This document shows, in pieces, positions 33,995 through 34,062 of a stretch of DNA of 64,000 bases. Each line of letters starts with the position of its first letter. The first letter of the stretch is position 1. A program made the position numbers and the translations under genes. This DNA is from Carcharhinus longimanus (lineage: Eukaryota), in NCBI GenBank assembly GCA_030264375.1, contig JASCQW010000122.1, positions 33,997,969-34,061,968 of the forward strand, written 5' to 3'. The notes beneath the pieces were generated by a model. The model saw nothing but the letters and a program-made list of their open reading frames with translations, did not search any database and was not told the origin of the DNA.

Positions 33995-34044
33995 TTTAAT
34001 TACCTGGAATCTGCGTATGTCTCATGGATTTCCTGCATTCTTCA
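33995..34044 (-). repeat. 50-bp duplicate of the ebf3 exon-7 3' half plus splice donor
   Basis: 47/50 identical to 35376-35425 (offset 1381, no gaps). Confidence 0.95.
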
Positions 34045-34062
34045 CTGCACTGTTATGTAATA

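Follow-up and report, generated by a model that had tools for sequence, protein, structure and literature searches.

Does the copied exon end in intron 7 of a shark ebf3 gene act as a poison exon, or is it a scar of the event that placed it there? An earlier note on the window (the whole 64,000-nt stretch of Carcharhinus longimanus DNA analysed here) had described a copy of the end of exon 7 with its splice donor in the next intron, and had proposed that it could act as an NMD-triggering cassette or a decoy donor, or might equally be silent. Judged by its sequence, the gene is ebf3, a gene of brain development and the EBF3/COE3 ortholog, since both a COE3-type IPT sequence and linkage to MGMT were found. 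The exon 10 peptide matched human COE3 at 42/42 positions and differed from COE1 at 2 positions, and it was also common to one EBF paralog in the genome; an MGMT-family gene lay 200-230 kb from ebf3 on the same contig, tail to tail, in agreement with the synteny of human EBF3. For the C1 EBF paralog, exon 11 was located at G000:C1:74901250-74901336 (L083), 67 Mb from the other exons of that gene (C1:7.98-8.35 Mb), and this displacement is likely a scaffolding error. In ebf3, exon 8 holds an internal AAG/GTACGG 27 nt before its end (27028-27055), which is a possible in-frame alternative donor; a short form of this kind is known for EBF genes. A weak 39-nt likeness to exon 8 was seen in intron 8 (25359-25397, same strand, 79.5%, E=0.003), and it is either an older copy or chance.

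Direct alignment of minus-strand 33995-34044 with 35376-35425 reproduced the reported match between the copy and the end of exon 7 with its donor (47/50), and the repeat finder and self-BLAST returned the same pair (53 nt, 92%, ungapped), which a gapped alignment carried on to about 33989. The chance expectation of such a match was 1.2e-13 over all pairs in the window. When the 2.68-Gb genome was searched with the copy, only two places were found, the copy itself and exon 7. The three paralogous exon 7s matched the copy at only 36/50, 35/50 and 41/50 positions, so the source is ebf3's own exon 7; the donor tail of the copy was absent from all three. An origin from a paralog was ruled out by the genome search and these alignments, and a mobile element bearing the exon piece was ruled out by the genome search and by the other copies of the surrounding repeat, which lacked the exon piece. 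The features of the locus are collected in Table 1.

Table 1 Positions of the copy, its source and the surrounding elements in the window
Feature	Position	Strand	Remarks
ebf3 exon 8, next authentic exon	27028..27172	-	145 nt
Older dispersed repeat, left part (insertion host)	33557..33987		60-78% identity to other loci
Copy: 41-nt end of exon 7 + first 9 nt of intron 7	33995..34044	-	47/50; may reach about 33989; spanned by one contig in 4/4 runs
Cryptic donor CAG/GTAATT	33998..34006	-	Same as exon 7 donor; scores best among 432 intron 7 GTs
Linker between copy and SINE	34045..34061		17 nt; site of AG1 (34046-45) and AG2 (34051-50)
Full-length tRNA-type SINE, antisense to ebf3	34062..34368	+	A box 34072, B box 34110; model positions 6-326 of 327; short tandem tail
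Older dispersed repeat, right part, resumes after SINE	34373..35150		Further repeats interrupt; 12/14 other copies colinear without insert
Authentic exon 7 donor (copied)	35376..35384	-	Sequence
ebf3 exon 7, copy source	35385..35466	-	82 nt; open frame between AG and GT; COE1_DBD match; equal length in three paralogs

The copy lies at the 5' junction of a SINE. HE1 and V-SINE elements carry an 80-bp V domain and share their 3' end with the HER1 LINE. The element beside the copy has a head derived from a tRNA, with A and B boxes, a high copy number (a first look at the genome gave 10,054 candidates, of which 40 were scored) and a short tandem tail, as in HE1 / V-SINE, and two papers list HE1 for sharks and rays (PMC3747384, PMC4824008). 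The name HE1 serves here only as a lead, taken from head, copy number and tail. Rfam gave 0 matches at E<=1 over 33500-35400, and ARAGORN gave 0 tRNA matches. Within the ebf3 span, 8/10 hits of the SINE family were antisense to the gene. Intron 7 also holds an inverted repeat at 32761-32859 with 38-nt arms (84% complementary), which belongs to a repeat that is found near 56719-56892 as well.

Both the copy and the SINE interrupt an older dispersed repeat. Across this site the 12 colinear copies of the 14 other host-repeat copies lacked both the exon piece and the SINE, and in an alignment of 11 repeat copies the host read through TGTTGCAAATATCTCC. In the window, the host repeat breaks off with TGTTGCAA ahead of the copy and starts again with AATATCTCC beyond the SINE, with hardly any gap. 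Since the host repeat resumes right after the SINE, the copy, the 17-nt linker and the SINE fill one break. The probability of such adjacency by chance, computed post hoc, was 0.003 for a SINE 5' end at most 20 nt away, and 0.01 when SINE-hit ends of any kind were allowed. At the target site, the overlap was 1-2 nt at most, there was no poly(A), and the intron donor was included. The linker matched the left flank 33983-33993 at 10/11 positions (p=0.006) and exon 7 over 6 nt twelve bases further on (p=0.012), and the SINE tail resembled it likewise. Thus the linker looks like a patchwork of flank- and source-like pieces, with the SINE tail as a competing template.

Of 22 listed runs, 4 were analysed at the locus; they represent four studies and four organisms (D, E, F and G), and their contigs differed from the window by about 2-7%. 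All four runs had one contig that spanned the left flank, copy, linker and SINE head, and a second contig that joined the SINE tail to the right flank; among the listed changes the copy was free of indels. The earlier note had suggested a check for presence in related sharks, and the copy-SINE junction was found in all four other organisms, which means that the insertion predates their split and that an assembly artefact is excluded. The fragmentation of the assembly into 68,774 contigs and an N run 900 nt from the copy would speak for an artefact, but in each of these organisms a single contig runs through the copy and its two junctions and has substitutions of its own, and 3 sites differ between the copy and the exon, so we regard this explanation as practically eliminated. 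No empty site was seen among the four runs, which counts against a firm reading of one event; joint arrival of copy and SINE is only probable.

The rate of change of the copy was compared with its surroundings on listed changes only; the lists lack 95 table rows and with them the changes private to X9 and X13, and the usable lists were those of X17 and X18. The source exon 7 was without cover in the four runs, and the 3 copy-source differences carry no direction. The listed changes in the copy were 33996 and 34015 in X17 and 34024 in X13 and X18, the last of which abolishes the in-frame TGA. In X17 the copy had 2/50 changes against 6/151 in the flank (Fisher p=1), and in X18 1/50 against 8/205 (Fisher p=1); variable sites amounted to 3/50 in the copy and 16/297 in the flank (p=0.74). 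From whole-contig rates 6.4 copy changes were expected and 3 were seen (p=0.12, listed changes). Thus the copy evolves at about the flank rate (~4%) and no strong constraint was seen in this low-power test, which means that mild constraint on the copy may exist. By contrast with the flank, the linker was variable at 5/17 sites (16/297 in the flank, p=0.003, listed changes), and the upstream AG (AG2) was lost in X17 from organism F, a loss that would leave the 41-nt form unharmed. No run had a listed change in AG1, in the first TGA or in the donor 9-mer, but so few bases would often escape change at these distances. For the age of the insertion, the SINE was compared with the majority sequence of 23 other copies and differed at 38/301 positions (12.6%), or 32/277 outside CpG-prone columns (L040, which did not align, was excluded from this count), and the 3/50 differences between copy and exon are compatible with the SINE age (p=0.11-0.16).

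The splice signals were scored with a matrix derived from the four EBF genes (41 acceptors, 37 donors), and the copied donor 9-mer was in the training set; the matrix is crude, and even the real T-rich exon 7 acceptor scored just -0.7. Both candidate AGs were where the earlier note had placed them, with a pyrimidine run upstream that is the reversed SINE head. AG1 scored -1.6 and AG2 1.05 against a leave-one-out median of 6.3 for authentic acceptors (range -2.0 to 12.4, n=41), and scores this low were seen for a few of the authentic sites; among the 604 AGs of intron 7, 97 scored at least as high as AG1 and 52 at least as high as AG2. No YTNAY branch motif was found in the 70 nt upstream, against 32/41 authentic acceptors with one. 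The two candidate AGs are 5 nt apart, and a second AG within -20 to -4 was seen for 1/41 authentic acceptors. The copied donor is identical to that of exon 7 and had the top score of all GTs in the intron, so that by its sequence it can fairly be called a "decoy donor". Use of the CAG/GT of the copy as a recursive-splice site was rejected, as there is no pyrimidine tract upstream.

Three products are predicted, the 41-nt form, the 46-nt form and an exon 7 of 1463 nt, and each of them runs into a premature stop. The 41-nt form does open with TGA as its first codon, and the 46-nt form shifts the frame and stops 24 codons past exon 7, within exon 8, so the claim that either inclusion leads to a premature stop holds in silico. 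The AGA>TGA change in the original frame was also read correctly, but neither inclusion form reads it. The idea of a functional poison exon was not supported, given the weak acceptors, the missing branch motif, conservation no higher than that of the flanks and the fast-changing acceptor side; the silent alternative that the earlier note had kept in reserve fits best. Our literature search found no paper that links EBF3 with a poison exon, and a search for partial exon duplication with splice terms found nothing related.

Some splicing into the copy could nevertheless occur without being selected. Such leakage would include the 41- or 46-nt cassette, or extend exon 7 to 1463 nt, at a low rate, and NMD would remove the transcripts, which would have no part in regulation; such leakage would fit either origin of the copy. 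The copy brings the best-scoring donor of intron 7 and has kept the GAAGAA-type purine-rich words of exon 7, words that act as splicing enhancers, and the three products with premature stops and the authentic acceptors that score as low as AG1 and AG2 also point this way. However, the acceptors are weak, their AGs compete at a distance of 5 nt, and a branch motif is missing, which makes leaky splicing distinctly unlikely as the main account of the locus. That selection keeps the copy as a poison exon which tunes EBF3 dosage via NMD is very unlikely. The copy is kept in five organisms, no change is listed for AG1, for the first TGA or for the donor, and 3 changes were seen where up to 6.4 were expected (p=0.12), but the neighbouring SINE and repeat are retained equally, the copy changes at the flank rate, the acceptor side changes five times faster than the flank, organism F has lost AG2, and the acceptor is weak with no branch motif. 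Human EBF3 ranks third in its genome by predicted haploinsufficiency (PMC11436875), and this was counted in favour of selection. Predicted dosage sensitivity, however, would argue equally for a copy that is ignored and for one that is used.

From its sequence anatomy, the 50-nt copy is probably a neutral templated insertion that was made as the 5' end of the SINE joined the chromosome. Reverse transcription of the SINE would start from its 3' end at the target, and the free 3' end would then briefly copy nearby sequence, exon 7 at a distance of 1.4 kb and after it the left flank, with microhomology driving the switches between templates before sealing. The outcome would be patchwork 5' extra nucleotides, templated by DNA or by nascent ebf3 pre-mRNA. 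The template exon 7 is still intact and the filler is partly flank-like, as for 5' extra nucleotides and templated insertions. The spliceosome would mostly ignore the copied donor because no adequate acceptor or branch point lies upstream, and the copy would thus have been tolerated rather than selected. The copy is antisense to the SINE, has the same sense as ebf3 and includes the unspliced donor; this orientation would be expected from twin priming on nascent ebf3 pre-mRNA, although DNA templating would give the same half the time. A bolder version holds that the SINE captured nascent ebf3 pre-mRNA by twin priming and so made a poison cassette in one step, from SINE-derived pyrimidines, a filler AG and the copied enhancer and donor, which a shark lineage has since used to trim dose; we consider it highly improbable.

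The anatomy of the copy is rare and no routine feature of the SINE family. When 5'-complete SINE flanks were surveyed, 120/130 passed the N and mask filters, and the same anatomy was seen in 0/119 others (0.95 Mb). Unique local matches were found in 1/127 SINE 3' flanks and 5/1500 random 90-nt windows. Three other 5'-flank matches were not of the same class, as they were inverted duplications with the SINE head; two formed one pair and one spanned an N run. At locus L112 (about 4778-6446), the SINE head and about 28 nt of unique 5' flank were duplicated in inverted orientation 1.6 kb away, a further case of local copying.

The copy and the SINE might also have arrived in two events. A break-repair patch (a class 2 templated insertion or a replication template switch) would have set the copy between short host duplications, and the SINE would have landed at another time, again with a neutral outcome. 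In X13 and X18, an 8-nt TTATGCAA is present at both 33968-33975 and 34053-34060, as in the host repeat, and this repeat brackets the non-SINE part; short local duplications do occur away from SINEs, as the random windows indicated, and the copy is 6% diverged against 12% for the SINE, a difference that is not significant. However, the adjacency has a chance of only 0.003-0.01, the copy and the SINE share one host-repeat break, and 4/4 runs carry both, so two events are unlikely, if the most serious rival to an insertion templated during SINE joining. Taken together, the copy is real, old and most likely neutral, low-level use of the cryptic donor appears possible from the sequence, and a selected poison exon is unlikely. 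As a neutral scar, the locus would be a tidy germline case in which the 5' filler of a non-L1 SINE insertion was templated, as well as a shared marker that phylogenetic work could use, and little more. If inclusion were true, the locus would matter, since a ready-made poison exon would have arisen via local exon-end copying during retrotransposition in a gene of the haploinsufficiency type.

The locus can be compared with known systems. A class 1 TSIP or L1-type retrocopy (PMC5110952) was rejected, as there is no TSD of at least 5 bp and no poly(A), and the source is unspliced. Class 2 templated sequence insertions are alike in having no poly(A), no clear TSD and repair-type junctions (PMC5110952), but here the template is local, and the insertion is common to several species rather than polymorphic. 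NMD-coupled poison exons are alike in that predicted inclusion puts a premature stop upstream of many junctions, but high conservation is missing here and the acceptor is weak. Chimeric L1 insertions can bear a gene-derived piece at the 5' end of the element in antisense (2/17 cases, PMC13174262), and antisense mRNA/L1 chimeras have been ascribed to twin priming (PMC13174262); chimeric L1s with copied genomic pieces of <250 bp usually took them from within 15 bp (bioRxiv 2024.08.27.596794). Here, by contrast, the element is a non-L1 shark SINE with no long TSD or poly(A), the donor is unspliced, and the source is the host gene. Polymerase theta or MMBIR insertions are similar as patchworks of nearby templates that leave the template intact and occur as germline variants (PMC12426944, PMC8421209). 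Templated insertions are often patchwork and mostly <25 bp (PMC12426944), whereas the 50-nt piece from 1.4 kb is longer and comes from farther away than is typical, and the enzyme is not assignable from the sequence. For zebrafish ZfL2-2, about half of the inserts bear 5' extra nucleotides, many of them flank-derived (PMC4245944). The junctions of ZfL2-2 and ZfL2-1 are alike in their non-element letters, part of which are copied from the flank, and in little or no target duplication (PMC4245944); the ebf3 insertion differs in that the element is a SINE and the main piece is a 50-nt exon end copied from 1.4 kb away.
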